Shown: positions 4,802 to 41,219, numbered from the stretch's first letter. The stretch is 64,000 nucleotides of DNA from Bacillaceae bacterium (GCA_017656255.1 JACDOE010000010.1:36400-100399); one strand, 5' to 3'. The notes: a model not told the origin generated them from the letters alone. Numbers and translations are program-made.

Positions 4802-4840
4802 GGTAAATCTCCTCATTCTATTGATTAAACTTTTATAGGG

Positions 4841-8925: not shown

Positions 8926-9010
8926 TAAAAAAACTGTAATCAGTTTTATTTGCTTTTTTAAATTCTTTAAGTAAGTATCATATAACACCATAACAGACAG
9001 TAAAAGACAA

Positions 9011-9034
9011 GATCCCGGTTTGAATACCGAGATC
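9011..9034 (-). terminator. terminator after the last gene of the segment-B operon
   Basis: The minus strand reads 'GATCTCGGTattcaaACCGGGATCttgtctttt', starting 28 nt downstream of the stop at 9062. Confidence 0.55.
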
Positions 9035-9061
9035 ATCACAGTAACTTAATACATCTCTAAT

Positions 9062-10869: not shown

Positions 10870-10917
10870 ATTATCACCCCATTATAAAACTCTTTAATTA
10901 TTATCTAACTCGACAAA

Positions 10918-12818: not shown

Positions 12819-12823
12819 CGGTA

Positions 12824-13534
12824 TCACCTCACGAATTGAAAGTATCCGTTTCTCCCTAATATCCATAATAAATAGTCCATCTTACCTAAAGGCACTCCAA
12901 TCTTCAAGCAAATAATTCGTAATGCTTCTTCATATTGTAAGTAAACCTTTTCTGTTATGTTTTTAGGAATATTATATCCTAAGTAACCAAGAAATCTTAG
13001 TATATGGATATCCAGTACTGCACAATCATTATTAAATCCTGTATTCCTTAATAGCCAACTAGCTGATTTCATGCCAATACCTGGACATTCACATAGCCAT
13101 GTTCTAGCATCAAATGAATTAAGTTCATTAAGTTTATCAAATAATCTCCAGTGACAGTTCTCCCAAAGCCAATATCCAGCCTTGGATATAACCTTAGGCT
13201 TCGTTTCCACAAATCTATATTTTCTGAACTGGCCGTTACAAGTAATGGGATAAAACTGCTTTTTTGATAACTCTCTCTTTATTACATTTTCAATTATATA
13301 TAAGTTAGATATAGAGGAATAATATTTTGCTTCGATTAACCCTTTATTCTTTAATACATGTAAACCTGATTTGTTTAACTCATAACTGATTCCAAATCCT
13401 CCAAGAACTACGAAAAAAAATTCATCTATAACTTGTTCATTAGATTTTGAAACAAACGAAAACTCTCTTTCAATTGCAATACCATAAGTTTCCCAAAGTT
13501 CTTTTAACACATTGAATGCTCTAGTATTTTCCAT
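12824..13534 (-). CDS. Ogg2/AGOG-like HhH-GPD DNA glycosylase (N-glycosylase/DNA lyase type)
   Basis: 236 aa. 'CPGIGMKSASWLLRNTGFNNDCAVLDIHILRFL' shows a helix-hairpin-helix with the Lys and downstream Asp arrangement of bifunctional Ogg2-type enzymes. Confidence 0.65.
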   Translation of the reverse strand: MENTRAFNVLKELWETYGIAIEREFSFVSKSNEQVIDEFFFVVLGGFGISYELNKSGLHVLKNKGLIEAKYYSSISNLYIIENVIKRELSKKQFYPITCNGQFRKYRFVETKPKVISKAGYWLWENCHWRLFDKLNELNSFDARTWLCECPGIGMKSASWLLRNTGFNNDCAVLDIHILRFLGYLGYNIPKNITEKVYLQYEEALRIICLKIGVPLGKMDYLLWILGRNGYFQFVR

Positions 13535-13540
13535 ATCACT

Positions 13541-13891
13541 TTACGCCTCTACCTCTACTGTAACCTTCGGGTCATGTTGATTCCCTTCTTTTTTTATTAC
13601 AACCCCCTTGTATTCCCACCCTTCTTCAATACATTTTAAGAGCCAACTGTATTTTGGAGGAACGACCCCTATACTAAAATTATCTTTTTCTTTTTTTACT
13701 TCCATGACCGGCAATGTATCATCATTTCTTAAGATAATAGACACTTCATCATTCACAGAAACATTTCTCCACACTGCTTTTTGATTCTCATTAACAATTA
13801 ATAAAATTGTAACTTTTTCACCGCATCTATTTACTGTTTTTCCAGTTCCTCCTCCAAAACCACCAAATGATGAAAAGCCACCACTTCCCAT
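13541..13891 (-). CDS. small protein with Gly/Phe/Ser-rich N-terminus and beta-rich body (possibly HIRAN-like); first gene of the operon
   Basis: 116 aa beginning 'MGSGGFSSFGGFGGGTGK'. Strong AAGGAGGA RBS. Its stop lies 6 nt before the next start. No family was recognised with confidence. Confidence 0.55.
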   Translation of the reverse strand: MGSGGFSSFGGFGGGTGKTVNRCGEKVTILLIVNENQKAVWRNVSVNDEVSIILRNDDTLPVMEVKKEKDNFSIGVVPPKYSWLLKCIEEGWEYKGVVIKKEGNQHDPKVTVEVEA

Positions 13892-14024
13892 ATAAATCCT
13901 CCTTACTAGTTATTTTTTTTTTTGCAATCTTTATAATACTCCAAAACTATTTATATTTAAATTAAATGAAATCTCATTTTGATCACTTCTTTTGTAAATT
14001 GTCTAATGTGCTTAGAATATGTTA

Positions 14025-14860
14025 TTATTTCTCTAGACCAAATTCTCTTTTTAATTTATTAAAGTCATATTCTTTTATTTCGATTGGGATACTAAGGTTC
14101 TTAAGTTTTGACATCAAATCGCTTTTATTAACAACAGGTTTGTCCTCGTAAACAATTGCGAATATCAATTTAAAATTATTTATTGAAGCACTGTCTAAAT
14201 TTTTAGCTGTCTGATATAACGATTCAATAACATTACGAGTTAACTTACCTCGTTTATTATATTTTATCTCAAATCCATAAGTTGAATTATCAGTTTTACT
14301 AATACCATCAATTTCAATTAACTTATCAGAAGATTTAAATGCCATGTGTCTCTGAATAGGAATTTTAAATTCTTGTTCAAGTTTCCTAAACACCAAATCT
14401 TCAGCTAAAAAGTATTGCATTTTGGGATCAACAGTCACTTTGGAAGGCATGTCTAACGTACCCGCTTTATCCTCTTCAATATTATTATCACTAGAAGATT
14501 CTTCAAGCTCTGCTTCTGCTTTCTTTCTTTGTGAATCACTAGTTAATTTTAAGAAATTCCCTTCATCCTTAAAATCACTTGGCGCATATAATTTGGTATG
14601 ATAAAAATCACAAGTCTATAAAATGTAAATAAAACAAGTAAAGGGAAAATTACTATGAAACACACAAGGAACCATTTTTGAGAAACATTTAATTCCGAAC
14701 TAAATTGAAGTACTAATGCTGCTATTCCATAAATTAGTGATATAAATAATGCAATGATACCTAAGGGGTTCTTTGTAAAACCTGATGCACTTCTCGTGAA
14801 TTCTATTATTATCGCTCACCTTCCTTGTAAAAATTTTAAAATGATGCCAACGTTACTCAT
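14025..14860 (-). pseudogene. disrupted membrane-anchored PD-(D/E)xK-like protein
   Basis: The ATG at 14860 begins 'MSNVGIILKFLQGR'. An in-frame TGA follows at 14816-14818. Two hydrophobic helices come next, then a frame change at a T-run near 14600-14610. After that the frame runs into the 141-aa ORF 14025-14450, which has 'IEIDGIS...YGFEIKY'. Confidence 0.5.
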
Positions 14861-15283
14861 TCTTAATACCAATCCAAATCATATCCGTGGACAAAAATGG
14901 CTGGAAAATATAAAACATGTCTGAGTATCAAAAAATTAATCTTTTAATATAACATTCTTCTCTTTTTTCTCATTAACTCCTCCTAGCTTTTGTGCACACC
15001 AATATATTAAAAAACAATCTTCAAAACTATACTTACTCCTTTTAGATCAAAGATCAAAAAATCCCTAACAAAAAAATTAGTGTTTATTCTCAATTGTATT
15101 TCGGTAAAAAAACAGATAATCCCTTTTAGGACAAATAAAAAATAATTAGTAAGGATATCACTCTATACTATATACTTATCTGAATTAATAGGTTTAATTG
15201 GTTTTATAATTATCTTCTTTTAGCTATTTGAAACCCCCCCTGACCCAGCACCACACCAGCATTCTTCCGACATCGCTTCGTGT

Positions 15284-15523
15284 TCACAACCTCTTGACGA
15301 TATGCGCCACCAGGCGAAGGTTATGTTCGATCAGCATATTTCGCGCCTCAACATCTCCCTGTTCCATCAAGCGTAAGTATTTCTCCTCGTCTTCTTCCGA
15401 CAGTGGCTGGGGAAAGGCATTGTTCTTGACGTAGGAGACGAACAGAATCAGTTCTTTGTACAGAAGCGCCAGTAACCCGAGCAGTCCAGACACCCGATCC
15501 CACCTCCAGGAATAGTGCTTCAT
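15284..15523 (-). pseudogene. sigK: sigK 5' fragment (codons 1-77, then 'RL' and a stop)
   Basis: The 79-aa ORF matches intact SigK through '...[10 protein letters not shown]'. Homology ends at 15292. Confidence 0.9.
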
Positions 15524-15561
15524 TTATGCCTATTCCCTTTTGGGCTTGTTTGTGTCTGTAC
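15292..15561. repeat. 270-bp direct repeat (partner at 8656-8925)
   Basis: See the feature at 8656-8925. Confidence 0.9.
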
Positions 15562-15669
15562 CGGAGATTTGTTTTTGCTCTTTTGTTAAAAACTGTTTAA
15601 GCATTTTTAACACTAGCGTTCTCAAATAAATTTAATGTTTCTGTCCTTCACTTCTTTTTTCTACAAGTA

Positions 15670-15710
15670 AACAAACATCCCGCAATACCTTAATAGTAAT
15701 GCGGGATATT
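15670..15710 (-). terminator. terminator of the Hen1-Pnkp operon
   Basis: 'ATCCCGCA-15 nt loop-TGCGGGAT', followed on the minus strand by 'gtttgttt'. Confidence 0.5.
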
Positions 15711-15742
15711 ATGAGAACCTTTTAGACATACCCTTCTTTACC

Positions 15743-18346
15743 TTATAACCTCGGGTCAATTTCTTTCTCTTTACTTACTTCAAATAGCATGTTAGCAACC
15801 ACCTGTTTATATTTATGATCTGACTCATTTATTTTATCTAAATGAAAGGCCAACATCTCTTTCCCAAGTTTGAATTCATTGATAGAGGTTTTTAGTTTCT
15901 TTGAAATATTTTTTTGCTTTAAAAGCTTGGCATATTTGTGTGGAAAGCGATAATCATATCCATAAACAATGGTTAAATAATCTGGATTGCGAACTTTCAT
16001 ATAAGGGGCAGTATCATCTGCCAATTTTTCAGGTTTAATCACGACACCTTCCATTTTTCTTTCTGTTGTCAAAGTCTTAAAAAAGGTTAAAGCTTTTTCA
16101 TAATAATCCTGTTCGTTTAAATCGATCAACATAAATTCATCATCAGATACAAACTTAAAAATTTCCGATGTTGATTCTGCAGGGATGATCTCTTCTCCAT
16201 TTTCCTTGACCATTTTTAAAATATTAAATGGTTTATAGTTAATCTCATCATCCTTTGCATAGAGCTCGATTTGTTCATGATATTTTTGATGGGCTTCCAC
16301 ATGTTTTTCTATTGGTTCATATGACTTTAACATAGTTTGCAACGCCTTATAAGTCTGGTAAGTGGCACCGCCAAACTTTTTAATCAAATCTTTCTTAGAC
16401 ATTGTTTGCTGATCGACTTCATAGTCACTTGATTTATATTGCTCAACAAGTTTTTGAAAGTGGGCATCAAAGCCTTGCTCCTTTAAAAAATCCAACTCTG
16501 TTTGTAAAGCTCTGTCTATAGTCCTAAATTGCTTTTCAATCAATTCCTCTCCCAAAATAGACCAGGGCAGTAATTCACCATCAAACACGATTGTTTTTAT
16601 TTTATTCTCTTTCATGTAATCCGAAAATTTATTTAACAGATTATCATATACCGGAGACAAATCCACTTTCTTAATTTTAAATCCATTTCGACTCACTGCA
16701 TAACATTGATCTAGTTCCCTTGCTAAGTAAATGTTACATCTTGACCCCATGTACTTCGGTTGCAAAACCACTTTATGGACGCCTTTTCTCTTAAAATACA
16801 ACAACCCCTGTTTTAAAGATTCCAATTCATTGCTATCCAAATCTTTGTCAGCCGGCGACATGGTACCAGAAATATAATTAATCTTATTTTTCAAGACATA
16901 ATTAAGGCGCTTTTGGTCCTGTTCATGTAAATCCTCGATGTTAACATGTTTATCTCTTTGTTTAAATAAAGTAGGTAAAGGTTCGTTCCAGTATTTACTA
17001 GTGCTTGTAATTCGCTGCTGTTTAAAAAACGGTCTCCAGGAGTCAATCACAACAGAAGAAAGAACATTTCCATTGGCAGCTCCCGTATCAATGTTAATCT
17101 TATTTTTAATTTGGACTATTTCTTTTACAGCAACATGTCCAAAAATATGATACGGATGATTTCCAACACTCTCTGACTCCAGAAAGTGCAATTGCTCCTC
17201 GTAGGGTTTTTCTCGATCAAGAACAAAGCTTCTTTGCTTTTTCAGAGACGTTTTATCTAACTTCCCTATATATTTGTTTTGACACGGAGCATGTGTCACA
17301 TAAAAGGAAGGCTTTTGTAATCCAATATACCTGTAGAATTCTTTCGAAGATTCAACGAGTCGGAAAAATTTGTGTTTTAAATCCTCATCCTTTTCAAAGA
17401 TTTCTATAGAGTCAAAGTAGTTGTCTAGTAAACTTGAATCTACTGAATTCTTATCAATTTCACCTTTCAAGTATTTGTAAACAAAATTCTCATGATTTCC
17501 TTTTACAAGCACAAAATGATCCATATTTTGTTCAATAAATTCTACCGTCTCTTTGGTAGCATTTCCTTTGTCAATCCAGTCTCCGTTAAGAATAATTTTA
17601 TATTCATCCGTTTTTTCAGTGGATAAAATACGATTATTTTCAATATTAAACCCATAGCTGATAAGCAGCTTTTTTAAATCAGCCACTTTTTCATGAACAT
17701 CTCCAACAATTATATATTTGTGTTCCTGCGGCAAAATATGACTGAGATAATGATCTAAATCCTCTATCATAATTTTATAATTTGCATTCGGTTCATTGGT
17801 ATCAGGGTTATAGAAATCCCGCTCCCTAATTTTGTGTATTCGACGAAATTTTGACTTTGAAATTTGTTTCAGAACCTCTCTTTTGAGACGAGTGACATGA
17901 TTTGAAATTAATCGTCTTGAACCACCTGAAGCATAGAAATCTTCTCTATTTTTAAAATCAAAAAGTATAGCTTCCAGGTTATATTGCTTTTCTTTAGCAA
18001 TTTCCATGATTTGCTCACGGAATTCTTCTGAAAGGCCAATTGTATCAACAATGACGAACTCGGCGTTAATTGGAAATGACGTAACGGCTTTTAGTTTCTC
18101 AAATAAAATATGAAAGGCTTGTTCGCTGCTTTCCATCATAATTCTGTCATGTTTGTCATATTCATGTCCCAAAATATCCTGCCTGATTTCATCAGAGGAA
18201 ATATATTGAACATTGGTTTTAAAGCCCCGATCCTTATCCTGAATAGAAAGTTGAGGCAACAATATTTCTTTAGCAAATGTTGATTTACCGGAATTAGTAG
18301 CACCAATTAACATAAATATGGTATGCATATTTGTTTTTAATTCCAT
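15743..18346 (-). CDS. pnkp: bacterial polynucleotide kinase-phosphatase (Pnkp): kinase + metallophosphoesterase + ligase/adenylyltransferase domains
   Basis: 867 aa. Contains an N-terminal P-loop 'IGATNSGKSTFA', central 'IIVGDVHE...GDWIDKG...GNHE' phosphoesterase motifs, and a C-terminal 'QPKYMGSRCNIY' ligase-like lysine motif. Confidence 0.85.
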   Translation of the reverse strand: MELKTNMHTIFMLIGATNSGKSTFAKEILLPQLSIQDKDRGFKTNVQYISSDEIRQDILGHEYDKHDRIMMESSEQAFHILFEKLKAVTSFPINAEFVIVDTIGLSEEFREQIMEIAKEKQYNLEAILFDFKNREDFYASGGSRRLISNHVTRLKREVLKQISKSKFRRIHKIRERDFYNPDTNEPNANYKIMIEDLDHYLSHILPQEHKYIIVGDVHEKVADLKKLLISYGFNIENNRILSTEKTDEYKIILNGDWIDKGNATKETVEFIEQNMDHFVLVKGNHENFVYKYLKGEIDKNSVDSSLLDNYFDSIEIFEKDEDLKHKFFRLVESSKEFYRYIGLQKPSFYVTHAPCQNKYIGKLDKTSLKKQRSFVLDREKPYEEQLHFLESESVGNHPYHIFGHVAVKEIVQIKNKINIDTGAANGNVLSSVVIDSWRPFFKQQRITSTSKYWNEPLPTLFKQRDKHVNIEDLHEQDQKRLNYVLKNKINYISGTMSPADKDLDSNELESLKQGLLYFKRKGVHKVVLQPKYMGSRCNIYLARELDQCYAVSRNGFKIKKVDLSPVYDNLLNKFSDYMKENKIKTIVFDGELLPWSILGEELIEKQFRTIDRALQTELDFLKEQGFDAHFQKLVEQYKSSDYEVDQQTMSKKDLIKKFGGATYQTYKALQTMLKSYEPIEKHVEAHQKYHEQIELYAKDDEINYKPFNILKMVKENGEEIIPAESTSEIFKFVSDDEFMLIDLNEQDYYEKALTFFKTLTTERKMEGVVIKPEKLADDTAPYMKVRNPDYLTIVYGYDYRFPHKYAKLLKQKNISKKLKTSINEFKLGKEMLAFHLDKINESDHKYKQVVANMLFEVSKEKEIDPRL

Positions 18347-19618
18347 TTACTTTTCACCTCTTGCTTTAACCAAAACTCCCTGAGTGGTATAAACCCCGTC
18401 TACACAATCGCCAATACTTAAATGATGAATCTCAAAATCTCGTTCATCAAAAATCTCACTTATCCATTGTTTAAATTCATTTGTCCCCATTTCCCATTTA
18501 TGATCTTCATGCCGATATTCATCCAGGGAATAATACTTATTAAAATCATGATTTGGAGTCGTTATAATAATGGATTCAAAATGAATGTCATCAAGAATTG
18601 TTAAAATTAGTTTTTTAGCCTCATCCTTCTCCATGTGTTCAATGACTTCTGTAAGGATGACATCAACTAATTCCCCATTGTAATCTTCAATAAAATCCTC
18701 AATGGATCCATAAGTTAATATATTTTCAATACCCCTTTTTTTAATTCTTGCATCCAGCGAACGAATGATATCTTCATCAATGTCAATGGCATAATAGTAT
18801 TTGTCACCTATACTTTCGGAGAAAAGAAAGGCATAATAACCTTCCCCACATCCAACATCAACAATTGGTTTGTTGAAGGGTAATAACTTTTTTATCGCTT
18901 CTCTTCTTTGGTGAGCTGTATGTCCGTAAGAAAAGTTTATGTCATACCTTTGTGTTTCTTCCAGGCTTTCTTTAAATTTTGAAAATAATTTCCTGCTGGT
19001 AAGTATGTTTCGTGCAAACAGATACCTTATAAAAAACGGAGCATCCAGGACTTTAATTTGATTAACATACTTTTCAATCAAACTATCTGTAACATCAAGG
19101 TATTCGTTACCTATTAAAGATAAAAATAAAAACAATAGATTAGCTGTATTCAATAAATCATAAATACTTTTGTTCGTTTTGATTTTAATTGAATAGCTCT
19201 TGTGAGATTGATGAATCATTTCGATAGAGAAATCCTCAAAATGTTTGCTAAAAAAATCTATATATCTTGGTAGTGTGATATGAACCATATTCACAAATAA
19301 TTCATTTTCATATCCTTCAAGATCATTATCATACCGGTTTTTGATTGTGGAATTAAAGAATTCTGTCATTGCGTTTAATGGAAAAAGAGGTGTATTATAT
19401 CTTGAAACATTTAGATATTCAAAGCTTTCTTCTTTATGTTGCTTGTAAGATATCTCGTTGTCAGCGTCCTTAAAATATATATTGTAGGTTTGATCATCAG
19501 AATACCAGCCAAACGCAATTCCCTGTCTGACTGTACGCAACATCATGCCTGAAGCTGGATTTTTGCGTATTAAAAAAGAAAAGTGCGGATTCGTTGATTT
19601 TAACTGAACAATAGCCAT
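18347..19618 (-). CDS. hen1: Hen1 3'-terminal RNA ribose 2'-O-methyltransferase
   Basis: 423 aa. The N-terminal 'FSFLIRKNPASGMMLRTVRQGIAFGWY' is Hen1-type, and the C-terminal SAM motif is 'IVDVGCGEGYY'. The stop codon abuts the pnkp start codon. Confidence 0.8.
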   Translation of the reverse strand: MAIVQLKSTNPHFSFLIRKNPASGMMLRTVRQGIAFGWYSDDQTYNIYFKDADNEISYKQHKEESFEYLNVSRYNTPLFPLNAMTEFFNSTIKNRYDNDLEGYENELFVNMVHITLPRYIDFFSKHFEDFSIEMIHQSHKSYSIKIKTNKSIYDLLNTANLLFLFLSLIGNEYLDVTDSLIEKYVNQIKVLDAPFFIRYLFARNILTSRKLFSKFKESLEETQRYDINFSYGHTAHQRREAIKKLLPFNKPIVDVGCGEGYYAFLFSESIGDKYYYAIDIDEDIIRSLDARIKKRGIENILTYGSIEDFIEDYNGELVDVILTEVIEHMEKDEAKKLILTILDDIHFESIIITTPNHDFNKYYSLDEYRHEDHKWEMGTNEFKQWISEIFDERDFEIHHLSIGDCVDGVYTTQGVLVKARGEK

Positions 19619-19773
19619 CTACTTTCACTCCTGTTATTTCCCTCAATCATTTTCCAATAAACCAATAAACTTTAATTGCTATACTAACCTGATTCCCAGT
19701 TCAAAAGAATAATCAAATAAAATATGAAAAGAGGAAAAATGTAGTCCCCTTTTCCTAGTGCTTGGTAAAAATA

Positions 19774-21105
19774 TCATGCTTTTGAAGATATACAACACAA
19801 CATAAAGAGACCAATTATGAATCCATATAAGATTAAAATCCAGTAGCATAAACTTAACACATACTTTCTTTTGATTCGTCGTCTCATCTGAATCCAATAT
19901 TCAATTATAGAGGCTTTAAGTAATATTCGGACATAAAAAAATTGATATATCATAACTAGCAATATAATCCCCGCTGTCATTATTGTCGCAAGTAACAACT
20001 TGAACCAAAAAGAAACAGTTTGAATATCAATCATCATAATAAATAGTAATATGCTGCCCCCTGTTCCTAATGCAATCAGTAACAGCATAGATAAAGAAGC
20101 AATAATTCTTTTAGATAGGGAAATATGGTCAATATTTAACGTTTCCTCCAAAACTTCTTTGTTCTCCTCATGATTTTTTAGTTCGTCAAGATTTTCAATA
20201 CCTCTTAAATCAAAAAAGTCTCTAAACTTATCTAAAAACCACTTAGCTATATCATGTGCATCTTTTTCAAGTTCTTCAGAACGAAGAGATAATTGGATAT
20301 ACTTTTCATCTTTATCTGTCGTGTCTTCAATAACACCTTTAACTCCCTCTCCCCTTCTATCAATCTGGATATACATAAGTAATTGATCCTCTTTAATTTG
20401 AAAAATTATCTGAATTTCATCCATCTTATCCCATAGAATTTCCTTTATCGGTTTAAAATCGTATATAAACATAAAAGGTTTCTCATCACTATAGGTATAA
20501 AAAGAGTTGAAATTCATTCTCATATTATCAATAGACACATGGGATTCTGTTTTTAAATTCTTTTTATATCCTTGCCAATTTTTAAACTGATACAAAATGT
20601 AAGATAATGAAAAACCAAGTTCTTTCTGAAGAGCTTCAATTACTTTTTGTACCCATGGATGAGGGAAAACATTAATTTCGTTATATTCCTTCCAATTTGG
20701 CCACTTGTCAAGGGAGCATATCGTGTCAATCGATATATGAAAGAATCCTTTAGAAACCAAATCCTTATCTCCATTTTCTGATTCTTTTACATTGTGAACG
20801 GCAATAGGGGTATCATAGGGAACCTGAAAAGAAAAGGAAAATTCTAATTTTTCACCAATTTCAATTTTACGTTCTTTTGCAATCGTAGTTTTTAACAGTG
20901 GGACACGAGAATATATTAAGTCGTCACGGGTATCCATTTTTGTTGTAATCTGAATGACTAATTCCTTAATTATTCTTTCCTGTATTCCTCCCTGAACTAT
21001 TACTTTGCCCGATACTTGTTCACCGGGGCGGTAATAATTTTTATCCAGAATAGTCTTGATTGCTATATCTCCATGTCTTAGCCTCCAAAGCTTTTTTCTT
21101 AACAT
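19774..21105 (-). CDS. Spo0M-like (arrestin-fold) protein with C-terminal multi-pass membrane region
   Basis: The N-terminus 'ILDKNYYRPGEQVSGKVIVQGGIQERIIKELVIQI...FSFQVPYDTPIAV' resembles Spo0M. The last 120 aa or so contain 3-4 hydrophobic helices. Confidence 0.6.
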   Translation of the reverse strand: MLRKKLWRLRHGDIAIKTILDKNYYRPGEQVSGKVIVQGGIQERIIKELVIQITTKMDTRDDLIYSRVPLLKTTIAKERKIEIGEKLEFSFSFQVPYDTPIAVHNVKESENGDKDLVSKGFFHISIDTICSLDKWPNWKEYNEINVFPHPWVQKVIEALQKELGFSLSYILYQFKNWQGYKKNLKTESHVSIDNMRMNFNSFYTYSDEKPFMFIYDFKPIKEILWDKMDEIQIIFQIKEDQLLMYIQIDRRGEGVKGVIEDTTDKDEKYIQLSLRSEELEKDAHDIAKWFLDKFRDFFDLRGIENLDELKNHEENKEVLEETLNIDHISLSKRIIASLSMLLLIALGTGGSILLFIMMIDIQTVSFWFKLLLATIMTAGIILLVMIYQFFYVRILLKASIIEYWIQMRRRIKRKYVLSLCYWILILYGFIIGLFMLCCISSKA

Positions 21106-21294
21106 ATTTTCACCTACTCCTTAAAAGCCTTTTATCAATTTCATATTCTACAAATTTCAACAATTACCTTTAAGTAGAAAAGGCATAAAGAAAGGAGATA
21201 AATATTGCCGCTAATCCCCATGGCTAAATAATGGGCCAAAAGAGAGTAAGATTGCAGATTGTCCTTATTATTATTTTGATCTGGCCAGTACATA

Positions 21295-21643
21295 TCAGGG
21301 TGCTCTATAAGATATTCCTTTTAATCTTTGTAGTCGAATCTTTTGATACCCCCCATCTGAACTCTCGGAAGTGACAATTTCGATGTTAGCACCTAAATCT
21401 TTTAAACGGTTATATAATTATATCCCTTGATAACATTCTTAGAGCTATTTCAAATGTCCCCGATGTCGTTTATAATATGACTACCTTTTCTTATAAACTT
21501 CTTTTCTTCTGCTTTTTGTAGAATATGTTTTAGGTTAACTTCATAATATAAAAACTTGCCCCCAAACAAATTTTTCTCTAATGGTCTATTCCAGGTAATA
21601 CATAATCTGAAAAAGGCCAACCTTTTGTAGGAAAGCCAAACAT
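21295..21643 (-). pseudogene. degraded ORF of unknown family
   Basis: An ATG at 21643 preceded by AGGGAGGG begins 'MFGFPTKGWPFSDY'. The reading then continues only by switching frames at least three times ('ITWNRPLEKNLFGGKFLYYEVNLKHILQKAEEKKFIRKG...', 'YNRLKDLGANIEIVTSESSDGGYQKIRLQRLKG'). Confidence 0.3.
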
Positions 21644-21664
21644 ATAAATACCCTCCCTAAAAAA

Positions 21665-22810
21665 TCAAAAAGATAAACCTTTAAAACCATGAGAGGTGGA
21701 AATGGCCAGGATTCTGTCAGATTCATCCACCTCATGTTTAAGTTGTGTGATAGCACTCCAGATCGTGGCTGACGACGTTTCCAAATACAATCCATATCTC
21801 CCTAATTCCTGTTGACTTTGCAACGCATTTTGAAGGTTAACGACTTTGACCAGGCCCTTTGTATCAGTAATCGTCTTTTTTAACTGATACGTTACCGTTG
21901 ACCCACTGATAGAAGGAAGGCCATCAGATACACCTGCAAAATGATTTCTGTAATCTTCACCTTTTATGACACGCGTTAATCTGGGAAACGGTTCCACCGC
22001 TACAAATTTTGGGATTTCATTAATCCATCCAAGTTCTCTGGCGTCCCTGAAACCGCGATATATGCCCCAGATTAAATCGCCTCGAGAAGCTGGCGCTACA
22101 ATAATACTCGGCAGCGTCTCTTTCAGTTCTTCCATAATTTCATAGGCAATCGTTTTATATCCTTCAACCCCAAACACATGACTGCCGACGGGTGGGTTAA
22201 TGAAATTTGTTGCAGGATACCACCCTTTGTTTGAAACGGCTTTCTCCATACAGTCCCAGCGACTCAATGAAGTTTGCGTATAAATCATTTTGGCTCCGGT
22301 CATTTTAATCGCTTTAGAGTATGTCTTCTGAATGGCATCCGTAGCGATAATGACACATTTCAGACCAGAAGCAGCACTATAACTGGCTATCGACACGCCG
22401 GCATTGCCTGATGAAGCGGCCACCACTGTCGAATACCCCATGTTCTTCGCTCTTGCCATGATGAGAGGACTCATTCGATCTTTGTGAGAACCGGTCGGAT
22501 TTTGAGCTTCATTTTTGATCCAGACATGGCGAACACCGATTTGTCTGGCTAAATCCCTTAATTCCATGATAGGAGTCGATCCTTCTCCCAATGTAGGAAA
22601 AGAACGATAAGGCAATAAATCGGTGTATCTTTGTAAGCCTCTTTGTGACCGGTCAATATTAACTTTTTGATAATCATACAGAGCAGTCAAACTGGCCGGA
22701 TACCCTTCTTCCAGACAAAGAGGACATCCTTTGAAATAATCTTTGACTTCAAAGATAGAATGACATCGAATGCATTGGAAACCGATCATATTTTTGTTTA
22801 ATTGATACAT
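21665..22810 (-). CDS. threonine synthase-like PLP-dependent enzyme with N-terminal zinc ribbon
   Basis: Contains 'FQCIRCHS...CPLC', 'NPTGSHKDRMS' (PLP lysine) and 'SSGNAGVSIA'. I chose the start at 22810 (MYQLNK...) because it sits 9 nt after GAAGGGG; the longest ORF reaches 22894. Confidence 0.7.
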   Translation of the reverse strand: MYQLNKNMIGFQCIRCHSIFEVKDYFKGCPLCLEEGYPASLTALYDYQKVNIDRSQRGLQRYTDLLPYRSFPTLGEGSTPIMELRDLARQIGVRHVWIKNEAQNPTGSHKDRMSPLIMARAKNMGYSTVVAASSGNAGVSIASYSAASGLKCVIIATDAIQKTYSKAIKMTGAKMIYTQTSLSRWDCMEKAVSNKGWYPATNFINPPVGSHVFGVEGYKTIAYEIMEELKETLPSIIVAPASRGDLIWGIYRGFRDARELGWINEIPKFVAVEPFPRLTRVIKGEDYRNHFAGVSDGLPSISGSTVTYQLKKTITDTKGLVKVVNLQNALQSQQELGRYGLYLETSSATIWSAITQLKHEVDESDRILAISTSHGFKGLSF

Positions 22811-30035: not shown

Positions 30036-30297
30036 CGTATTCTTTCCCTCCCGAAAATGACTCACTTACCAAAATCACGAAACCCTTCCCGTCCATTTTG
30101 TCAAACCATTACCGTTCAATTATTTCCCTGTATTTTTCATTATATATTCAGATTTACTCAATAGCCATAAAAAGTGAAAACACGGCTGTTATAAAAACTT
30201 AAAACCTGCCAATCAATCTGATTGCGATTAAGAGGATTTTGCGACAAAAAATAGAAAGTAGTAAAAAAGAACGATTTTGGTCGAAAGGATTGGAACA

Positions 30298-32463
30298 ATG
30301 TCGGAAAACACGAACGAAGCTATCTTTTCTCTCGATATCGGAACCAGAAGTGTTGTCGGATTGATTCTGGAACCGGAGGACAACGGAAAAATGAAAGTGG
30401 CCGGATGTGAAGTGGTCGAACATGAGGACCGCTCCATGCTGGATGGACAGATTCACGACGTCGTCGCCGTATCTAAAGTCATTCGGCAGGTCAAGGAAAA
30501 ACTGGAGAAAAACCACGGCCCTCTTCACAAAGTAGCGGTGGCGGCAGCCGGGCGCTCCCTGAAAACCATCCGGGCCTCGGTGGAAAAAGAAATTAACGGC
30601 ATGCCGATACTAACCCGGGATGACATCCTTGCCCTGGAACTATCGGCGGTCCAGGATGCTCAGAAACAGCTGGCTGCAGAACAGGATACCCACGACCAGC
30701 ACGAATACTACTGCGTCGGCTACAGTGTGGTTCATTACTATCTGGATCATGAGGTTATCGGGAACTTAATCGATCAACGCGGCGAAACGGCAAGCGTCGA
30801 AGTCATCGCTACCTTTTTGCCCCGGGTGGTGGTCGATTCTTTGCTCGCTGCCCTGAAACGGGCCGATCTGGAAATGAACGCTCTGACTCTGGAACCGATC
30901 GCGGCCATCAATGTCCTCATCCCCTCCACCATGCGTAAATTAAATATTGCGCTGGTGGACATCGGGGCCGGCACCTCCGACATTGCCATCGCGGAACACG
31001 GCACGATTACCGCCTATGGCATGGTTCCCAGTGCCGGCGATGAAATTACAGAGGCACTCAGTGAAGCGCTGCTGCTCGACTTCACGATGGCGGAACAGCT
31101 GAAGCGGAACCTGAATGATCCGAAGCAGGAAGAATATAAAGTCACCGACATCCTCGGCTTCGAACAAACGATGAGCAAGACGGACATTCTGGATCAAATC
31201 GACGAACCGATCGACCGTCTGGCCCAATTAATCAGTGATAAAATCCTGGAATTGAACGGCAGGGCGCCCCAGGCCGTCATGTTGATCGGAGGCGGAAGCC
31301 AGATTCCCCGGCTGACAGATAAAATCGCGAAAAAAACGGGACTCTCACCGAACCGGGTGGCGGTGCGCGGTGCCGATGCCCTGCAGAATACCATTCACAA
31401 ACACCGGAAAATCAAAGGGCCTGAATTTGTCACACCGGTTGGTATCGCCGTGGCAGCGACGCTTCATCCGGTCAAATATTTGACAGTCACGGTCAATGAC
31501 AATATTCTGCGTATTTTTGACCTGAAAGAACTGACCATCGGCGATGCCCTGCTGCATGAAGGCATTGATATCAAAAAACTGCACGGACGTCCGGGATTGG
31601 CTGTAACAATCCAGGTCAACGGCAAACTTAAATTTATTCCCGGCGGGCACGGTACGCCCCCGTCCATTCTTTTGAACGGTGAACCTGCCCATCTGGATAC
31701 GCCCATTTCCGAAGGGGACAGTATCACGGTCATCAAGGGCGAAGATGGTGCGGACGCCAGCGCCAGCGTCAAGGATGTGATCGATGAATTGACGACACTC
31801 GATATCACCATCGACGGCCGTCCCTATTCCCTGGCACCTCTCATTCGGGTCAACGGGGAACCGGCCACACTGGAAACTTCACTGACAGACCGGGACGAAC
31901 TGGATATCCACCTCCCTTCCACGCTGGAAGAAGTAGTGGATGAATCGGAGCTTCTGAGCTGGGATGATATTATTGCCAGCTACACGTACCGTTTAAACGG
32001 ATCAGAAAAACAGTTGAAATGGCAAAAGGCCACGATCTATGTGAACGGAAGAAAAGCCGGACGCAAAACACCGGTCAAAACCGGTGACCGGATTACGATT
32101 GAACCGCAACCATCTGGTCAGCCGTTATTGAAAGATGTGATCCCGGCGGACCAACTTTCCGGGATGATGACACCGGTCACTTTTAACGGTGAAAAGGTGA
32201 ACATCCACGACCTGCAGTACAGCATCATCATGAACGGTGAGAAGGTCTCTCCTGATGAGCCGCTGGTTGACGGGGCGACGATCCGGATTGAACGTCATGA
32301 AGACCAGGGGCTCATTTTCAGCGATGTTTTCCGTTACGTTGAAGTGGATACCGGGCAACCGCCCGGCAAAAAAAAGCTGGTGATTCTCGTCAACGGGGAA
32401 CCCGCTGATTTAAACACCCCGATCAAGGCCGGCGATCATCTGGAAATGAGATGGGAAGCCTGA
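30298..32463 (+). CDS. FtsA/PilM-like actin-fold ATPase fused to tandem ThiS-like repeats
   Basis: The N-terminus has 'IFSLDIGTRSVVGLI', 'ALVDIGAGTSDIAI' and 'MLIGGGSQIP' (actin/HSP70-fold phosphate motifs). The C-terminal 330 aa or so hold five or more repeats of 'VNGEPxxLxTPIxxGDxIxI'. Confidence 0.65.
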   Translation: MSENTNEAIFSLDIGTRSVVGLILEPEDNGKMKVAGCEVVEHEDRSMLDGQIHDVVAVSKVIRQVKEKLEKNHGPLHKVAVAAAGRSLKTIRASVEKEINGMPILTRDDILALELSAVQDAQKQLAAEQDTHDQHEYYCVGYSVVHYYLDHEVIGNLIDQRGETASVEVIATFLPRVVVDSLLAALKRADLEMNALTLEPIAAINVLIPSTMRKLNIALVDIGAGTSDIAIAEHGTITAYGMVPSAGDEITEALSEALLLDFTMAEQLKRNLNDPKQEEYKVTDILGFEQTMSKTDILDQIDEPIDRLAQLISDKILELNGRAPQAVMLIGGGSQIPRLTDKIAKKTGLSPNRVAVRGADALQNTIHKHRKIKGPEFVTPVGIAVAATLHPVKYLTVTVNDNILRIFDLKELTIGDALLHEGIDIKKLHGRPGLAVTIQVNGKLKFIPGGHGTPPSILLNGEPAHLDTPISEGDSITVIKGEDGADASASVKDVIDELTTLDITIDGRPYSLAPLIRVNGEPATLETSLTDRDELDIHLPSTLEEVVDESELLSWDDIIASYTYRLNGSEKQLKWQKATIYVNGRKAGRKTPVKTGDRITIEPQPSGQPLLKDVIPADQLSGMMTPVTFNGEKVNIHDLQYSIIMNGEKVSPDEPLVDGATIRIERHEDQGLIFSDVFRYVEVDTGQPPGKKKLVILVNGEPADLNTPIKAGDHLEMRWEA

Positions 32464-32556: not shown

Positions 32557-32748
32557 TTAATAACACTCAGGATAATAACGGTACAACCACCCAAGTCCCA
32601 AAAACAAGATCGAGACGACACCCAGCGTCAACATACGTTCTGATAGTGAACCGTCAGCCATCAGAACCGGCCCCAGCCCGAAGAAGGCAACCAGTAACAG
32701 GCAAAATATAAAAATGAGGTGTACGAATAACCTTTTCACTTGTATCAC
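32557..32748 (-). CDS. small two-helix membrane protein (hypothetical)
   Basis: 63-aa ORF consisting of two hydrophobic helices. No family recognised. Confidence 0.35.
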   Translation of the reverse strand: MIQVKRLFVHLIFIFCLLLVAFFGLGPVLMADGSLSERMLTLGVVSILFLGLGWLYRYYPECY

Positions 32749-32813: not shown

Positions 32814-33209
32814 TCAGATTTCGATATCTTCCGGTGGCCGGTCAGACAGATACAACAAATGGCTTACACACCGGCAATCTGAAGAGCCAAATCCCCTTGC
32901 CGGCATACTCGCCCTATTTTCGTTCTTCACATGTTCACACAGGCTGCATTCTGTCCACACGTCTCCGGAAAACGTCTCCACCCGGACAATGTCCGCATGC
33001 GGTCGCAGATAATCCATGTGCCATCGCTTCTTTTTCTCTCTCTTTAGATGGCGTTCAATTCTCGCTTTAATATGCTTACGGGCACTTCCGATATAAGCAT
33101 AGAATCCGGGCGGAAAATGAAAGCTTCCCAGTTTGCCGATTTGTAGCGTTTGATCCTGTGCCACATAAAGATGCAGGACATACAACTGATGTTCCGTGTT
33201 AATATCCAT
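32814..33209 (-). CDS. GIY-YIG superfamily DUF123-like endonuclease
   Basis: Contains 'YVLHLYV...LGSFHFPPGFYAYIGSARKHIKARIERHL...KRWHMDYL', typical of the DUF123/Uri-like family. The start is uncertain (33209 or 33242). Confidence 0.6.
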   Translation of the reverse strand: MDINTEHQLYVLHLYVAQDQTLQIGKLGSFHFPPGFYAYIGSARKHIKARIERHLKREKKKRWHMDYLRPHADIVRVETFSGDVWTECSLCEHVKNENRASMPARGFGSSDCRCVSHLLYLSDRPPEDIEI

Positions 33210-33428
33210 TCCAGAACGTACTCCTTTATACCTTCCGTTCATATTATATTAACATTGAGATCTTGAGTTGAACACCATCGCTATTATGGCATCCTTTTAA
33301 TAGGTATGAATCAAAATAAAAAAATCGTATTAAAAGACAATGTTTCAGGTGTCATCCTTTTTTTATTATAAAGAAGTTTCCCTGGTTGCGACCTGATCAT
33401 CCATATTAAAATGAACCCGAGCGAAAAC

Positions 33429-33504: not shown

Positions 33505-34398
33505 TTATCCTCTCGGCCCCGCCTGTTCTTCCCTGTTTTTCACCATGTTCATCCAGCGGTTATTGACACATTTTTTCTTGAATAGATTCCATTTATGGCG
33601 AATTTGATATCGCTGATTGATGCGTGTTGCAACACCCTGTTCCGGAAGTGGATACGGATCTTCAATCCCGGTCACAAATAGACTCACTTTAAAGCGTTGG
33701 CCGGGTTCATCCATCGAATAGGTGCCCATCTTCAGAATGTCCGCTTTGTGAAACAGGTCATTAAGACGGAGCGTCATGTGGCGAAAGGTATTCATGTCCA
33801 CCTCACGCGCATACCCGATATTGACGATCATATTGCGCCCTTCCGCATAATCCGGGGCCAGGTAAGGTGCCGATATGGCATACTTTAAAGGTTCATTGAA
33901 AGAGTCGCCTTCGATCGTCCGGATAAAAACCGGACCGTCATCTCCTTTCAACAGCGTTTTGATATCATGGACATCGATATTGATTTCACCGGATAAACGA
34001 ACCATCTCCTCTACAATTCGCACCGGGGCTTCTTCAAGGGATTCAATGGTCTCCTGGGCCTGCTTGTACGGCACCTCCGGGTCCATCAATTCCATCATCC
34101 CGTCACTGTCAAAATAAGTGACCGCGTCGCAGATTCCCTTCATCTGGTGGTACTGCATCACAGCCGTTTCAAGTCGCTTTTTTCCTTCAAACTTGAACGG
34201 AAACCGAAAGATGCCGATCAAAAAACCCTGCGTCTCTTTCAAACGGTACAAACTTTCCACCATCTCCTCCGTTTCACCCGGATTGCCGCCACGAAACCGG
34301 AAAAAACAGATGTCATCCGGTTCTATCTGAGAGACCTGCGACATATCCTTGTTACCCACAGACTGTTTAAAAATAAAGATGCTGACCTCTTGACCCAT
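33505..34398 (-). CDS. FtsZ-derived protein lacking the N-terminal GTP-binding loops
   Basis: 'IGIFRFPFKFEGKKRLETAVMQYHQMKGICDAV' and 'INIDVHDIKTLLKGDDGPVFI...NMIVNIGYAREVDM...KVSLFVTGI' are co-linear with the FtsZ core. No GGGTGTG/T4-type loop is present. The ATG at 34398 follows AAGGGGGA. Confidence 0.6.
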   Translation of the reverse strand: MGQEVSIFIFKQSVGNKDMSQVSQIEPDDICFFRFRGGNPGETEEMVESLYRLKETQGFLIGIFRFPFKFEGKKRLETAVMQYHQMKGICDAVTYFDSDGMMELMDPEVPYKQAQETIESLEEAPVRIVEEMVRLSGEINIDVHDIKTLLKGDDGPVFIRTIEGDSFNEPLKYAISAPYLAPDYAEGRNMIVNIGYAREVDMNTFRHMTLRLNDLFHKADILKMGTYSMDEPGQRFKVSLFVTGIEDPYPLPEQGVATRINQRYQIRHKWNLFKKKCVNNRWMNMVKNREEQAGPRG

Positions 34399-34565
34399 AG
34401 CCTGTCCCCCTTGCTTTTTATTCATTATATACGGAACAGGACGTAAAGAATGTCATCCCGGGTCGATGGCGGGGTTCTAGTTTTGCAGAATTTTGATGAA
34501 ACTGATTGTAATTCCTGATATACTCTAGTAACGAATAGATAATGACATAAATTGGAGGCATTGAC

Positions 34566-37296: not shown

Positions 37297-39033
37297 TTAC
37301 ATTTTGAATCGGGACAGGGACTGATTCAATTCTTCCGCCATCTGGGCCAGGTTCTCGGCCATGCTGTTGATCTCCTGCATGGACGCGTTCTGCTGTTCCA
37401 TCGAGGCAGACAGTTCTTCCGTTCCCGCGGATGATTCTTCCGTCACGGCAGCGATGTCTTCCACCGCTTTCACACCCTGTTCCACTCTTCCCGTAATCTG
37501 TTCCGTTGCCATCGACACCTGCTGGATCTTGCCGCCCATCTCCTGGATGATTGCCGCAATCTCTTCGAAGGTCTTGCCGTTGGTTTCGATTACTTCCGAA
37601 CCTTCTTTGACCTGATCCACCGCTTCCTGCATCACCGTACCGGCTTCTTCTGCTTCCTTCAGCACCGAATGAACGATATCGGCGATCTCATTGGTAGATT
37701 TACCCGCCTGTTCTGCCAGTTTCCGTACTTCATCAGCCACCACGGCAAACCCTCTTCCCTGTTCACCGGCACGGGCTGCTTCAATCGCTGCATTCAGTGC
37801 CAGCAGGTTGGTCTGCTCGGCTATTTCATTGATCACTTTCAAGATTTCACTGATCTCTTTCGACTTTTCACTCAGCGTAAACACCACATTGGCCGATTGT
37901 GACACTTTCTGTTCGATGATTTGCATCTGTTCGATGGACTGATGGGCACTTTCCGCTCCCTGCCTGGATGCTTCATCTCCCCGGCGGGAACTTTCTTCCA
38001 TCTCCGTGGCACTGGCATTAATCTGTTTGATCTCTTCGTCGATCTGCTGCATGATCTCCAGCGCACTGCCTGCCTGCTCCGCCTGTGTGGTAGCACCTGC
38101 CGCCAGTTCTTCGGTGGTGGCAGATACCTGTTCGATTCCCTGGGTGATCTGGTTGGACGAAGCCGTCAGTTCCTCACTGGAGCCCGTCACCTTCTCAGAA
38201 ATGGTGCTGGCATCCTTGATCAGGGATCTCAGGTTATCCACCATGGCGTTCATGGCCTCGGACAGCTGACCGATCTCATCTTTCGAACGCACTTTCATCT
38301 GCGAAATCGCCAGGTTACCGTCCGCCAGCTGTTTCATTTTCTCCGTAATCTGTACGATCGGCGTACCCATGCGTCCGGCAAACATATAAATCACCACGAT
38401 ACCCACCACCAGTGCAATACCGAGGGTCAGCATCAACACCTGCAGAATACGGGTCGCTCCGCTGTTATAGTCCTCCATGTAAGAACCGGCACTGATCACC
38501 CATCCCCAGTGAGGGTCCAGTTCGCTGTAAGAAATTTTCGGCGCCAGTTTATCGGGGTTATCGGGAAGCGGCCACTCGTAATAGGTGAAACCTCCGCCTT
38601 CCTGAGCCTTTTTAATAAAATCACGAATAAAATAAAAACCGTTTTGTGTCTGGAAATCCCACATGTTTTTCCCTTCTACTGCGGGATGAGCCAGGGTATT
38701 CCCTTTTTGATCCACAACGGTAAAGTACCCGCGGGCCCCCAGATCGATCGTCTTATCGACCGGGCGCTTGCCCTCACTGTTTTTTTCACCGAGAATCTGT
38801 ACTTTGACCCGCTCCTGAGCTTCTTCGAGGGTCAGGGTTCCTTTCTGTACTTCCTCATCCAGCGTGGCAATCATTTTTTTAACCATCCGTACATTATTCT
38901 GGAGTCCCGTCGCTCCGGCATCATTCAGCTCATTCTCGGCGATCTGATAGGCTATCACGCCGATGATGAGACCGGGTATCACCAGTAAAGCAAGGCTGAT
39001 CAAAATAAGTTTCGCTTTAATGTTAAGTTTCAT
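37297..39033 (-). CDS. methyl-accepting chemotaxis protein (dCache-type sensor, HAMP, MA domain), paralog 1
   Basis: 578 aa with an N-terminal TM helix, a periplasmic Cache-like region, a second TM helix, a HAMP domain and the highly conserved signalling hairpin '[40 protein letters not shown]'. Confidence 0.9.
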
Positions 39034-39479: not shown

Positions 39480-41219
39480 TTACATTTTGAATCGGGACAG
39501 GGATTGATTCAATTCTTCCGCCATCTGGGCCAGGTTCTCGGCCATGCTGTTGATCTCCTGCATGGACGCGTTCTGCTGTTCCATCGAGGCAGACAGTTCT
39601 TCCGTTCCCGCGGATGATTCTTCCGTCACGGCAGCGATGTCTTCCACCGCTTTCACACCCTGTTCCACTCTTCCCGTAATCTGTTCCGTTGCCATCGACA
39701 CCTGCTGGATCTTGCCGCCCATCTCCTGGATGATTGCCGCAATCTCTTCGAAGGTCTTGCCGTTGGTTTCGATTACTTCCGAACCTTCTTTGACCTGATC
39801 CACCGCTTCCTGCATCACCGTACCGGCTTCTTCTGCTTCCTTCAGCACCGAATGAACGATATCGGCGATCTCATTGGTAGATTTACCCGCCTGTTCTGCC
39901 AGTTTCCGTACTTCATCAGCCACCACGGCAAACCCTCTTCCCTGTTCACCGGCACGGGCTGCTTCAATCGCTGCATTCAGTGCCAGCAGGTTGGTCTGCT
40001 CGGCTATTTCATTGATCACTTTCAAGATTTCACTGATCTCTTTCGACTTTTCACTCAGCGTAAACACCACATTGGCCGATTGTGACACTTTCTGTTCGAT
40101 GATTTGCATCTGTTCGATGGACTGATGGGCACTTTCCGCTCCCTGCCTGGATGCTTCATCTCCCCGGCGGGAACTTTCTTCCATCTCCGTGGCACTGGCA
40201 TTAATCTGTTTGATCTCTTCGTCGATCTGCTGCATGATCTCCAGCGCACTGCCTGCCTGCTCCGCCTGTGTGGTAGCACCTGCCGCCAGTTCTTCGGTGG
40301 TGGCAGATACCTGTTCGATTCCCTGGGTGATCTGGTTGGACGAAGCCGTCAGTTCCTCACTGGAGCCCGTCACCTTCTCAGAAATGGTGCTGGCATCCTT
40401 GATCAGGGATCTCAGGTTATCCACCATGGCGTTCATGGCCTCGGACAGCTGACCGATCTCATCTTTCGAACGCACCTTCATCTGCGAAATCGCCAGGTTA
40501 CCGTCCGCCAGCTGTTTCATTCTCTCCGTAATCTGTACGATCGGCGTACCCATGCGTCCGGCAAACAGGTAAATGGCCACGATACCTACCACCAGCGCAA
40601 TGCCGAGGGTCAGCATCAATACCTGCAGAATACGGGTTGCTCCGCTGTTATAATCTTTCATATAGGAACCGGCAGCCACTATCCAACCCCAGTGGGGATC
40701 CAGTTCCGTGTATGCAATCTTGGGCGCAAGAGAGTCCGGGTCATCCGGAAGCGGCCAGTCATAATAAGTGAATCCTCCGCCCTCCTCCGCCTTCTTTACC
40801 ATATCACGGGCAAAGTAGTATCCGTCTTCTGTTTTTGTATCCCACAAACTCTCTCCCTCAAGCAGTGGATGTGCAATAAGGACTGCTTTTCGCGACATAA
40901 CAAAATAGTAACCGTTTTCACCAATGTCAATCGTTTTATCGATCGGGCGCTTGCCCTCACTGTTCATTTCTCCCAGAATCTGTACCTTCACCCGCTCCTG
41001 GGCTTCTTCGAGGGTCAGGGTTCCTTTCTGTACTTCCTCATCCAGGGCGGCAATCATCTTTTTTACCAGGCGGACATCATTTTTCAATCCCGTAGCCCCG
41101 GCGTTGTTCAATTCGTCCTTGGCAATCTGAAAGGCCGTCATCCCGATGATCAGGCCGGGGACCGCCAGCAAAGCAAGGCTGATTAAGATAAGCTTGGCTT
41201 TAATGTTGATGAGTTTCAT
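39480..41219 (-). CDS. methyl-accepting chemotaxis protein, paralog 2
   Basis: 579 aa. The C-terminal 330 aa or so match paralog 1 exactly, while the sensor domain has diverged. Confidence 0.9.

Follow-up and report, generated by a model that had tools for sequence, protein, structure and literature searches.

Can a protein derived from FtsZ still serve a cell once the half that binds GTP is gone, and what might it then do? This question is raised by a gene in a 64,000-nucleotide stretch of DNA from a Bacillaceae bacterium (GCA_017656255.1, JACDOE010000010.1:36400-100399; hereafter the window), whose minus strand encodes an FtsZ-like protein at positions 33505 to 34398. An initial annotation had described this protein as FtsZ-derived and devoid of the glycine-rich GTP-binding loops, and our analysis confirms the observation of an FtsZ-derived open reading frame (ORF) without the GTP-binding half. 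The explanation that we tentatively favour is that it may be a nucleotide-free, one-faced FtsZ pseudo-subunit that would dock on the nucleotide face of canonical FtsZ and would be deployed by a Spo0A-type switch. End-capping and sequestration of FtsZ are central to the placement and remodelling of the division ring, and they are relevant to FtsZ-directed antibiotics.

The FtsZ-like gene and its boundaries

A mechanical ORF call in the window gives a minus-strand ORF of 306 amino acids at 33505-34425, and its translation contains all four of the peptides from which FtsZ ancestry had first been proposed. The initial annotation had placed the start inside this ORF, at 34398, and that start is the real one. 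The ATG at 34425 sits within a promoter's -10 hexamer (TATAAT, 34424-34429) and, because of this, the true start is the ATG at 34398; the identical protein at NCBI (P0001) has 297 amino acids, and 48 orthologues begin at a Met equivalent to 34398, about 63 residues ahead of an FRFP motif. Residues are numbered throughout according to the 306-amino acid ORF, although the accepted protein has 297. The gene and its ribosome-binding site are as follows.

33505..34398, minus strand: coding sequence of the FtsZ-like protein, 297 amino acids plus stop
34405..34412, minus strand: Shine-Dalgarno sequence AAGGGGGA, 6 nt 5' of the ATG at 34398

Might an intact nucleotide-binding domain be encoded upstream, hidden by a mis-called start or a frameshift? 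None was found. The gap between the ORF end at 34425 and the divergent M29 aminopeptidase gene (34566) is 140 bp, and when B. subtilis FtsZ was compared by tblastn with the window and with 49 related loci of 20 kb, only FtsZ residues 84-347 were matched, and residues 1-83 never, in any frame. Both PGAP and JGI label the product 'cell division protein FtsZ', an annotation that is misleading for genome-based counts of FtsZ paralogs.

Homology to FtsZ and predicted fold

The derivation of the protein from FtsZ, and its co-linearity with FtsZ, are borne out by profile, phmmer and profile-profile comparisons. The NCBIfam model TIGR00065 matches residues 63-266 at profile positions 128-336 of 353 (E=1.8e-14), phmmer against the PDB aligns residues 34-257 with residues 95/99-324 of S. 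epidermidis/S. aureus FtsZ (E=1.8e-15) and finds B. subtilis FtsZ at about 1e-10, and a profile-profile comparison with FtsZ gives a probability of 99.3%, in an alignment that was run in global mode and whose part upstream of strand S4 carries no confidence. Local alignments to FtsZ begin no earlier than FtsZ residue ~80. The TIGR00065 score of 53.9 bits lies below the cutoff of 295.2, and the profile alignments to PF00091 and PF12327 that had been suggested as a check are both sub-threshold (18.1 against a cutoff of 33, and 14.9 against 27). Since every curated threshold is missed by a wide margin, the protein is a divergent offshoot of FtsZ and not an FtsZ orthologue.

An AlphaFold2 monomer model built with 32 family members as input has a predicted local distance difference test score of 84 and a predicted template-modelling score of 0.81. 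Foldseek of this model returns FtsZ as its best matches (E=1e-18, template-modelling score 0.65), and the top structural matches are all FtsZ, CetZ, TubZ or tubulin, with no other family or fold among them. The hallmarks of the tubulin/FtsZ superfamily, a Rossmann-like N-domain, the core helix H7 and a C-terminal activating domain, are present. Pfam detects no MORN or other extra domain in the protein.

Elements lost and elements kept

Residues were mapped onto a B. subtilis FtsZ reference identical to PDB 2vam, and the elements that can be recognised are these.

34270..34293, minus strand: vestigial T4 loop, R45-T52, RGGNPGET, at the position of GGGTGTG and two residues shorter; family consensus GGNxSET
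34174..34209, minus strand: S5/T5 block, F73-R84, FRFPFKFEGKKR, the most conserved element of the family
33964..33990, minus strand: T7 synergy loop, G146-D154, GEINIDVHD, which contains the NxDxxD pattern
33655..33963, minus strand: C-terminal (GTPase-activating) domain, H8 to S10
33508..33654, minus strand: basic, Trp-containing C-terminal tail, predicted to be helical, in place of the FtsZ linker and C-terminal peptide

The first ~95 residues of FtsZ, S1-H3 with loops T1, T2 and T3, are absent from the family, and about 38 poorly conserved residues, predicted to form one strand and one short helix, stand in their place. Homology to FtsZ had been thought to follow the tubulin signature loop; it in fact begins before that loop, at strand S4. 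The reported lack of a GGGTGTG motif holds, the position being occupied by the RGGNPGET vestige, in which an acidic residue is inserted relative to GGGTG(T/S)G. Both guanine contacts have also changed: N166 of T6 is replaced by Ser, and F183 of H7 by Gln in the window protein and by Asn in the family consensus. Because T1 and T3 are absent outright and the T4 signature is degenerate, canonical GTP binding appears very unlikely at the level of the sequence, which supports the initial suggestion that the protein is unlikely to bind GTP in the usual manner.

The contact and catalysis elements that follow are kept. P76, E80, G81 and R84 correspond to P135, E139, G140 and R143 of FtsZ T5 and are invariant in the family; N149, D151 and D154 correspond to N208, D210 and D213 of FtsZ and are invariant in 32/32 family members. 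Helix H10 contains a family-specific invariant block, (T)LRLNDLFHKAD, at about 33739-33774 on the minus strand. By element, conservation is highest in T5 (0.94), S5 (0.86) and H10 (0.86), followed by the T4 remnant (0.80), S9 (0.76) and T6/H6 (0.70), and it is lowest in the N-terminal extension (0.32-0.47) and the tail (0.36). The tail is 30-60 residues long across the family, with a net charge of +3 to +11 (+8 in the window protein), a (W/F)x(K/R)(K/R)KW motif and a moderate hydrophobic moment of 0.3-0.7; no FtsA/SepF/ZipA-binding peptide of the (D/E)IPxF(L/M)(R/K) type was found in it in the family alignment.

A proposed one-faced subunit

What could an FtsZ-like subunit of this composition do? 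The longitudinal interface of FtsZ is made up of four regions (PMC8936486).

Region A: H10 of the upper subunit against the H6-H7 loop of the lower subunit
Region B: S9 of the upper subunit against T5 of the lower subunit
Region C: H8 of the upper subunit against T3 of the lower subunit
Region D: T7 of the upper subunit against H1 / H2 of the lower subunit

FtsZ residues D46, R143, N208, D210 and D213 are needed for assembly (PMC8936486). All four upper-subunit elements (T7, H8, S9 and H10) are kept in the family, and on the lower-subunit side only the H6-H7 loop and T5 are kept. The best explanation as a whole, to which we would give a little under an even chance, is that the protein acts as a nucleotide-free, one-faced pseudo-subunit of FtsZ. 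Its intact lower face (T7, H8, S9, H10) would dock on the GTP-bearing face of a canonical FtsZ monomer or, alternatively, on the nucleotide-exposed end of an FtsZ filament, and the docked T7 loop would complete the active site of the bound FtsZ subunit. Because the catalytic T7 triad is invariant in a protein that has no nucleotide of its own, a partner that carries the nucleotide is the simplest reading. Normal further growth would not be supported, since the upper face has two of the four contact regions and no nucleotide. The outcome would be capping, sequestration of the growth-competent face of the monomer and/or stimulated GTP turnover, by which Z-ring assembly would be modulated. The protein is, on this pattern of conservation, probably a regulator of FtsZ filaments rather than a filament builder, and capping or antagonising FtsZ polymers, as had been suggested at the outset, is a plausible role that the pattern fits.

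If this is true, a paralog in which the T7 face alone is intact, and which binds the opposite, GTP-bearing face, would be a natural probe of filament polarity, treadmilling and the shrinking end. The family also illustrates an evolutionary path from a cytomotive GTPase to a pseudo-enzyme regulator that has no nucleotide.

Distribution of the family and selection upon it

The family comprises 32 protein clusters at 90% identity, and the gene occurs in at least 49 species among the 185,579 species genomes scanned, with an architecture of ~280-310 amino acids common to all. All of the hosts are Bacillales; they include many halophilic/alkaliphilic Bacillaceae (Ornithinibacillus, Evansella, Salirhabdus, Virgibacillus and Piscibacillus), as well as Alicyclobacillaceae and Brevibacillus. 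We take the named genera all to be endospore formers. In a library of 1.84 billion proteins the family appears as two 50%-identity representatives (499 and 435 bits), and a gap separates its scores, at 435 bits or more, from those of ordinary FtsZ, at 123 bits or less. Further N-truncated FtsZ-like proteins in this library were considered and set aside, being fragments, or canonical FtsZ with a wrongly called start, in which GGGTGTG and IPxFL are still present. We found no published description of the family in the literature searched.

The ratio of nonsynonymous to synonymous substitution rates (dN/dS) is 0.05-0.09 in pairs with unsaturated dS, and the gene is a functional, chromosomal gene under selection. 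An origin in phages, plasmids or defence systems was rejected: phage and plasmid collections contain no family members, only ordinary FtsZ being matched there at 20-28% identity, and the PADLOC and PHROGs libraries give no match for the protein.

Three loci call for separate mention. In Piscibacillus salipiscarius JCM 13188 (L047) and Virgibacillus sp. YIM 98842 (L048) the orthologous ORFs are shortened, to 196 and 211 amino acids, for which frameshifts, pseudogenes or errors in the draft assemblies may be responsible. The contig L015 (DASQNU010000253.1), recorded as 'Candidatus Bathyarchaeia archaeon', carries a gene and promoter very similar to those of Brevibacillus migulae (L020), with dN 0.027 and dS 0.51, and is probably a bacterial contig mis-binned into an archaeal metagenome-assembled genome.

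The promoter and its candidate activator

How might such a gene be switched on? No promoter on the strand of the gene is picked up by a standard sigma-70 scan that allows spacings of 16-18 nt. The elements conserved upstream are the following.

34424..34429, minus strand: -10 hexamer TATAAT, identical or with one mismatch in 46 loci
34451..34457, minus strand: proximal box GATGACA (TGACA at 34451-34455), exactly 21 nt upstream of the -10
34461..34467, minus strand: second box ATCGACC, 10 bp upstream of the proximal box, a 5/7 match to the inverted 0A box TTCGACA
34476..34490, minus strand: distal element TTCTGCAAAACTAGA, family consensus TTCAACAAAACTAGT, about two helical turns upstream of the second box

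This layout is rigid across lineages as distant as Alicyclobacillaceae and Bacillaceae: TGACA-N21-TATAAT, with a spacer of exactly 21 nt, is present at 46 of 48 loci, TATAAT lies 23-42 nt ahead of the start codon across loci, and the second box in the family reads xCGACA or xCAACA. The composite pattern ACA-N6-GACA-N21-TATAAT occurs 35 times in 988 kb of related DNA, where ~0.5 occurrences are expected by chance, and 34 of these are upstream of the gene. We infer from this arrangement an activator-dependent sigma-A promoter with a 21-nt spacer and three phased boxes.

The Spo0A-activated sigma-A promoters spoIIG and spoIIE have spacers of 22 and 21 bp, and 0A boxes that overlap a -35-like element. 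A sigma-A -10 together with a -35-like element at over-long spacing is likewise found here. The best matches to TTCGACA lie at -40, -50 and -72, where on average 4.9, 4.3 and 4.1 of the 7 positions agree (background 1.87 +/- 0.74); the first box served as alignment anchor, and the boxes are imperfect. The core of the 0A box, TGTCGAA, is contacted at G2, C4 and G5, and in genuine Spo0A targets such as spoIIE the boxes come no closer than near-consensus (PMC3485338). Footprinted Spo0A sites include imperfect TGTtGAA boxes arranged in tandem with 3 bp between them (PMC2731898), and the family's TTCAACA, read on the opposite strand, gives exactly TGTTGAA. On this resemblance of motifs Spo0A~P would be the most likely activator, an assignment that we regard as possible and rather less than probable. 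Spo0A~P-dependent transcription would then lead to expression at entry into stationary phase or sporulation. Sites for sigma-F, -G, -E, -K, -H, ECF-type factors, MerR-type regulators, PhoP, WalR, TnrA, CodY and ComK were rejected as a worse fit than 0A boxes in both spacing and bases, in a comparison of the conserved upstream motif with consensus sequences made by eye. The promoter is conserved and its proposed regulation testable, and the protein itself would be a natural one-faced FtsZ subunit.

Two further conserved tracts and one stray match were observed. In Bacillaceae loci a tract ACTAGT-N2-TTTTTC lies between the distal and middle boxes (-63 to -50), and directly after the -10 hexamer (-6 to +1, ~34416-34423 in the window) there is a conserved G(G/A)TGAAAAAG, a 5/7 forward match to TGTCGAA; neither is explained by 0A boxes. 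The sole other occurrence of the composite pattern is at about 15030-15077 (minus strand) in locus L027, where the -35 position holds TTCGACA without a mismatch and a TasA/camelysin-like gene (ORF 14214-14804), followed by an M4 protease gene, lies ~230 nt downstream. In B. subtilis, genes of the TasA type are part of the Spo0A pathway. We do not regard this match as meaningful, since one match is what chance predicts.

Weighing the alternatives

Several observations weigh against the proposal of an FtsZ-docking pseudo-subunit under Spo0A control. The extreme conservation of T5 and H10, with both partners of regions A and B kept, fits self-association equally well. The physiological sign of the effect is ambiguous, because a shrinking-end cap is expected to be a weaker inhibitor than a growing-end cap. 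The promoter score at -40 is inflated, since the proximal box served as the alignment anchor; the distal box has mostly A or T where a 0A box needs G, and the ACTAGT extension fits no 0A consensus known to us. Finally, most spore formers, among them B. subtilis, lack the family, and its role is for that reason not part of the core of sporulation. The net effect on FtsZ could be either inhibition or stabilisation, and the half-preserved upper face might permit leaky co-polymerisation or self-association.

Self-association is the heart of the strongest rival, which we judge unlikely: the protein would be a self-assembling, nucleotide-independent scaffold, forming a head-to-tail polymer or dimer through regions A and B, where R84 could take the place of GTP by pairing with the T7 aspartates, held to the membrane by the basic tail and having no need of FtsZ. 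Both partners of regions A and B are indeed present and highly conserved (T5 0.94, H10 0.86, S9 0.76, T6/H6 0.70), the basic Trp-containing tail is conserved and predicted to be helical, and the protein has no FtsZ C-terminal peptide and would therefore not be brought in by FtsA or SepF. Such a scaffold, however, would have to assemble with half of the longitudinal interface (T3, H1 and H2) and the nucleotide/Mg/K network gone; the invariant NxDxxD catalytic spacing has no obvious cause where there is no gamma-phosphate, and the hydrophobic moment of the tail, at 0.3-0.7, is just moderate.

A sharper version of the pseudo-subunit proposal, in which the protein is a dedicated activating cap whose T7 loop is inserted in the GTP pocket of free FtsZ or of a filament's nucleotide-exposed end while it presents no nucleotide face itself, with Spo0A-type deployment at the onset of sporulation and the medial Z ring dismantled or re-sited, also strikes us as unlikely in so specific a form.

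Rather doubtful, too, is repurposing of the fold outside the cytoskeleton, in which the remnant pocket (GGN-ET, the T5 Glu/Arg and the T6 Asp) would bind some other small ligand or partner, and nucleic acid or an unrelated protein would be the target of the tail. The T4 remnant (0.80) and T5 (0.94) are conserved despite the loss of the phosphate and base sites, the net charge of the tail, at +3 to +11, would suit such a role, and no conserved neighbour at 49 loci hints at a pathway. Against these points, the conserved residues are exactly those with which FtsZ makes its subunit contacts and performs catalysis, the structural matches are without exception FtsZ, CetZ, TubZ or tubulin, and PADLOC and PHROGs hold no match.

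Genomic context

Neither tblastn of all 57 ORFs in the window nor all-against-all ORF clustering revealed a conserved neighbour across the 49 related loci, and by tblastn none of the 56 other ORFs of the window has a homologue within +/-10 kb of the gene at the 49 other loci. A conserved gene neighbourhood was rejected: the families met most often near the gene are SDR and ABC proteins, which are promiscuous, and ectoine genes common to related halophiles. The FtsZ-like gene is a stand-alone gene.

The initial annotation had raised a functional pairing with an FtsA-like neighbour (30277-32463, plus strand), on the model of FtsZ with FtsA, and this has not survived. The two genes are about 1 kb apart, and the neighbour has the fold of an FtsA/PilM-type actin, but they converge on each other across two intervening genes, the neighbour has no homologue within +/-10 kb at the 49 other loci, and the FtsZ-like protein has no C-terminal peptide of the kind by which FtsZ binds FtsA; we consider the pairing very improbable. 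Barely credible is the remaining possibility, that the gene is an artefact or a remnant in decay, be it through a wrongly called start, a frameshift in ftsZ or descent from a pseudogene copy. The PGAP/JGI name and the two shortened ORFs at L047 and L048 might be cited for it, and it is already refuted by the lack of room upstream, the absence of N-terminal FtsZ coding potential in any frame of 40 sequences, the single architecture in at least 49 species, the low dN/dS, and the conservation of the promoter and ribosome-binding site.

Other features of the window and of related loci were noted in passing. The FtsA-like gene encodes 728 amino acids of unusual architecture, in which several beta-grasp repeats of ThiS/MoaD-like type come after an actin-fold ATPase of the FtsA/PilM type (residues ~16-390). 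Between it and the FtsZ-like gene lies a gene for a 142-amino acid DUF123 (GIY-YIG-like) protein (32814-33242, minus strand), and a 63-amino acid hydrophobic ORF is found at 32557-32748. At the Salirhabdus loci L001/L005 (6900-8500) the FtsZ-like gene is near DUF1657, DUF421 (YetF-like) and DUF4363 genes, which are spore-associated and are not conserved at the other loci. Positions 4000-22000 of the window form a low-GC island (GC 0.31-0.35, against 0.45-0.53 elsewhere) that was probably acquired horizontally; it carries the RNA-repair pair Pnkp (15743-18346) and Hen1 (18347-19618), an HD-domain protein, an Ogg-type glycosylase, a PfkB kinase / nucleoside 2-deoxyribosyltransferase fusion (11553-12866), a sigma-70-family factor (8150-8887) and a Spo0M-like protein (19774-21105). 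Finally, tandem methyl-accepting chemotaxis protein genes at 37297-39033 and 39480-41219 (minus strand) are identical over ~360 C-terminal residues, together with their overlapping antisense ORFs, which points to recent duplication or gene conversion.

Comparison with known systems

Canonical FtsZ is homologous to the family and co-linear with it from S4 to S10, and the two share the Pro, Glu, Gly and Arg of T5 and the Asn, Asp and Asp of T7; the nearest solved relatives are FtsZ of Bacillota (S. aureus, S. epidermidis and B. subtilis). In contrast to FtsZ, the family has no S1-H3 with T1-T3, its T4 is degenerate and shorter, its guanine contacts are replaced and its adaptor-binding C-terminal peptide is missing, and the gene does not adjoin ftsA.

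Among regulators of FtsZ, the shared logic proposed here is substoichiometric end-capping or sequestration of monomers, as in MciZ, SulA and MipZ, whose folds are unrelated to that of the family. The T7 / C-terminal face of FtsZ is the binding site both of MciZ, which is sporulation-specific, and of SulA. To our knowledge, all natural protein inhibitors with a known binding site act on that face, and we know of no natural protein ligand of the nucleotide-bearing face. If the activating-cap version of the proposal is true, the nucleotide face of FtsZ would have in this family its first known protein regulator, and plant ARC3 would have a counterpart in bacteria. For MipZ, capping of the plus end has been reported (PMC9897490).

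The best functional analogy is ARC3, an FtsZ-derived regulator of FtsZ, and the resemblance is one of function only. ARC3, which is not known to carry the tubulin signature, differs in being eukaryotic, multi-domain and MORN-regulated by PARC6 and ARC6, and it and the family are presumably of independent origin. It consists of an FtsZ-like domain, a middle domain and MORN, binds FtsZ and directly inhibits Z-ring assembly, and higher FtsZ GTPase activity and more dynamic Z rings have been suggested as effects of it (PMC12232670).

Engineered FtsZ interface mutants (Redick 2005 and Du 2018, cited in PMC8936486) offer a second parallel, of which the family would be the natural counterpart, with its upper (nucleotide) face defective and its lower (T7) face intact; the engineered proteins carry point changes and still bind GTP, whereas here a whole subdomain is deleted and the deletion is fixed in at least 49 species. 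Other divergent or truncated paralogs of the FtsZ superfamily, which coexist with housekeeping FtsZ, have also been described. FtsZl1 and FtsZl2 keep the GGGTG(S/T)G GTP-binding domain, and FtsZl1 is without T6-H7 and the C-terminal domain (Makarova & Koonin 2010, PMC2875224), while FtsZ1 and FtsZ3 of Hyphomicrobiales are duplications of the FtsZ GTPase domain that are described as truncated (bioRxiv 10.1101/2025.09.29.679267). The family studied here is their mirror image, since the GTP-binding domain that was kept in those paralogs is the part that has been lost in this one.

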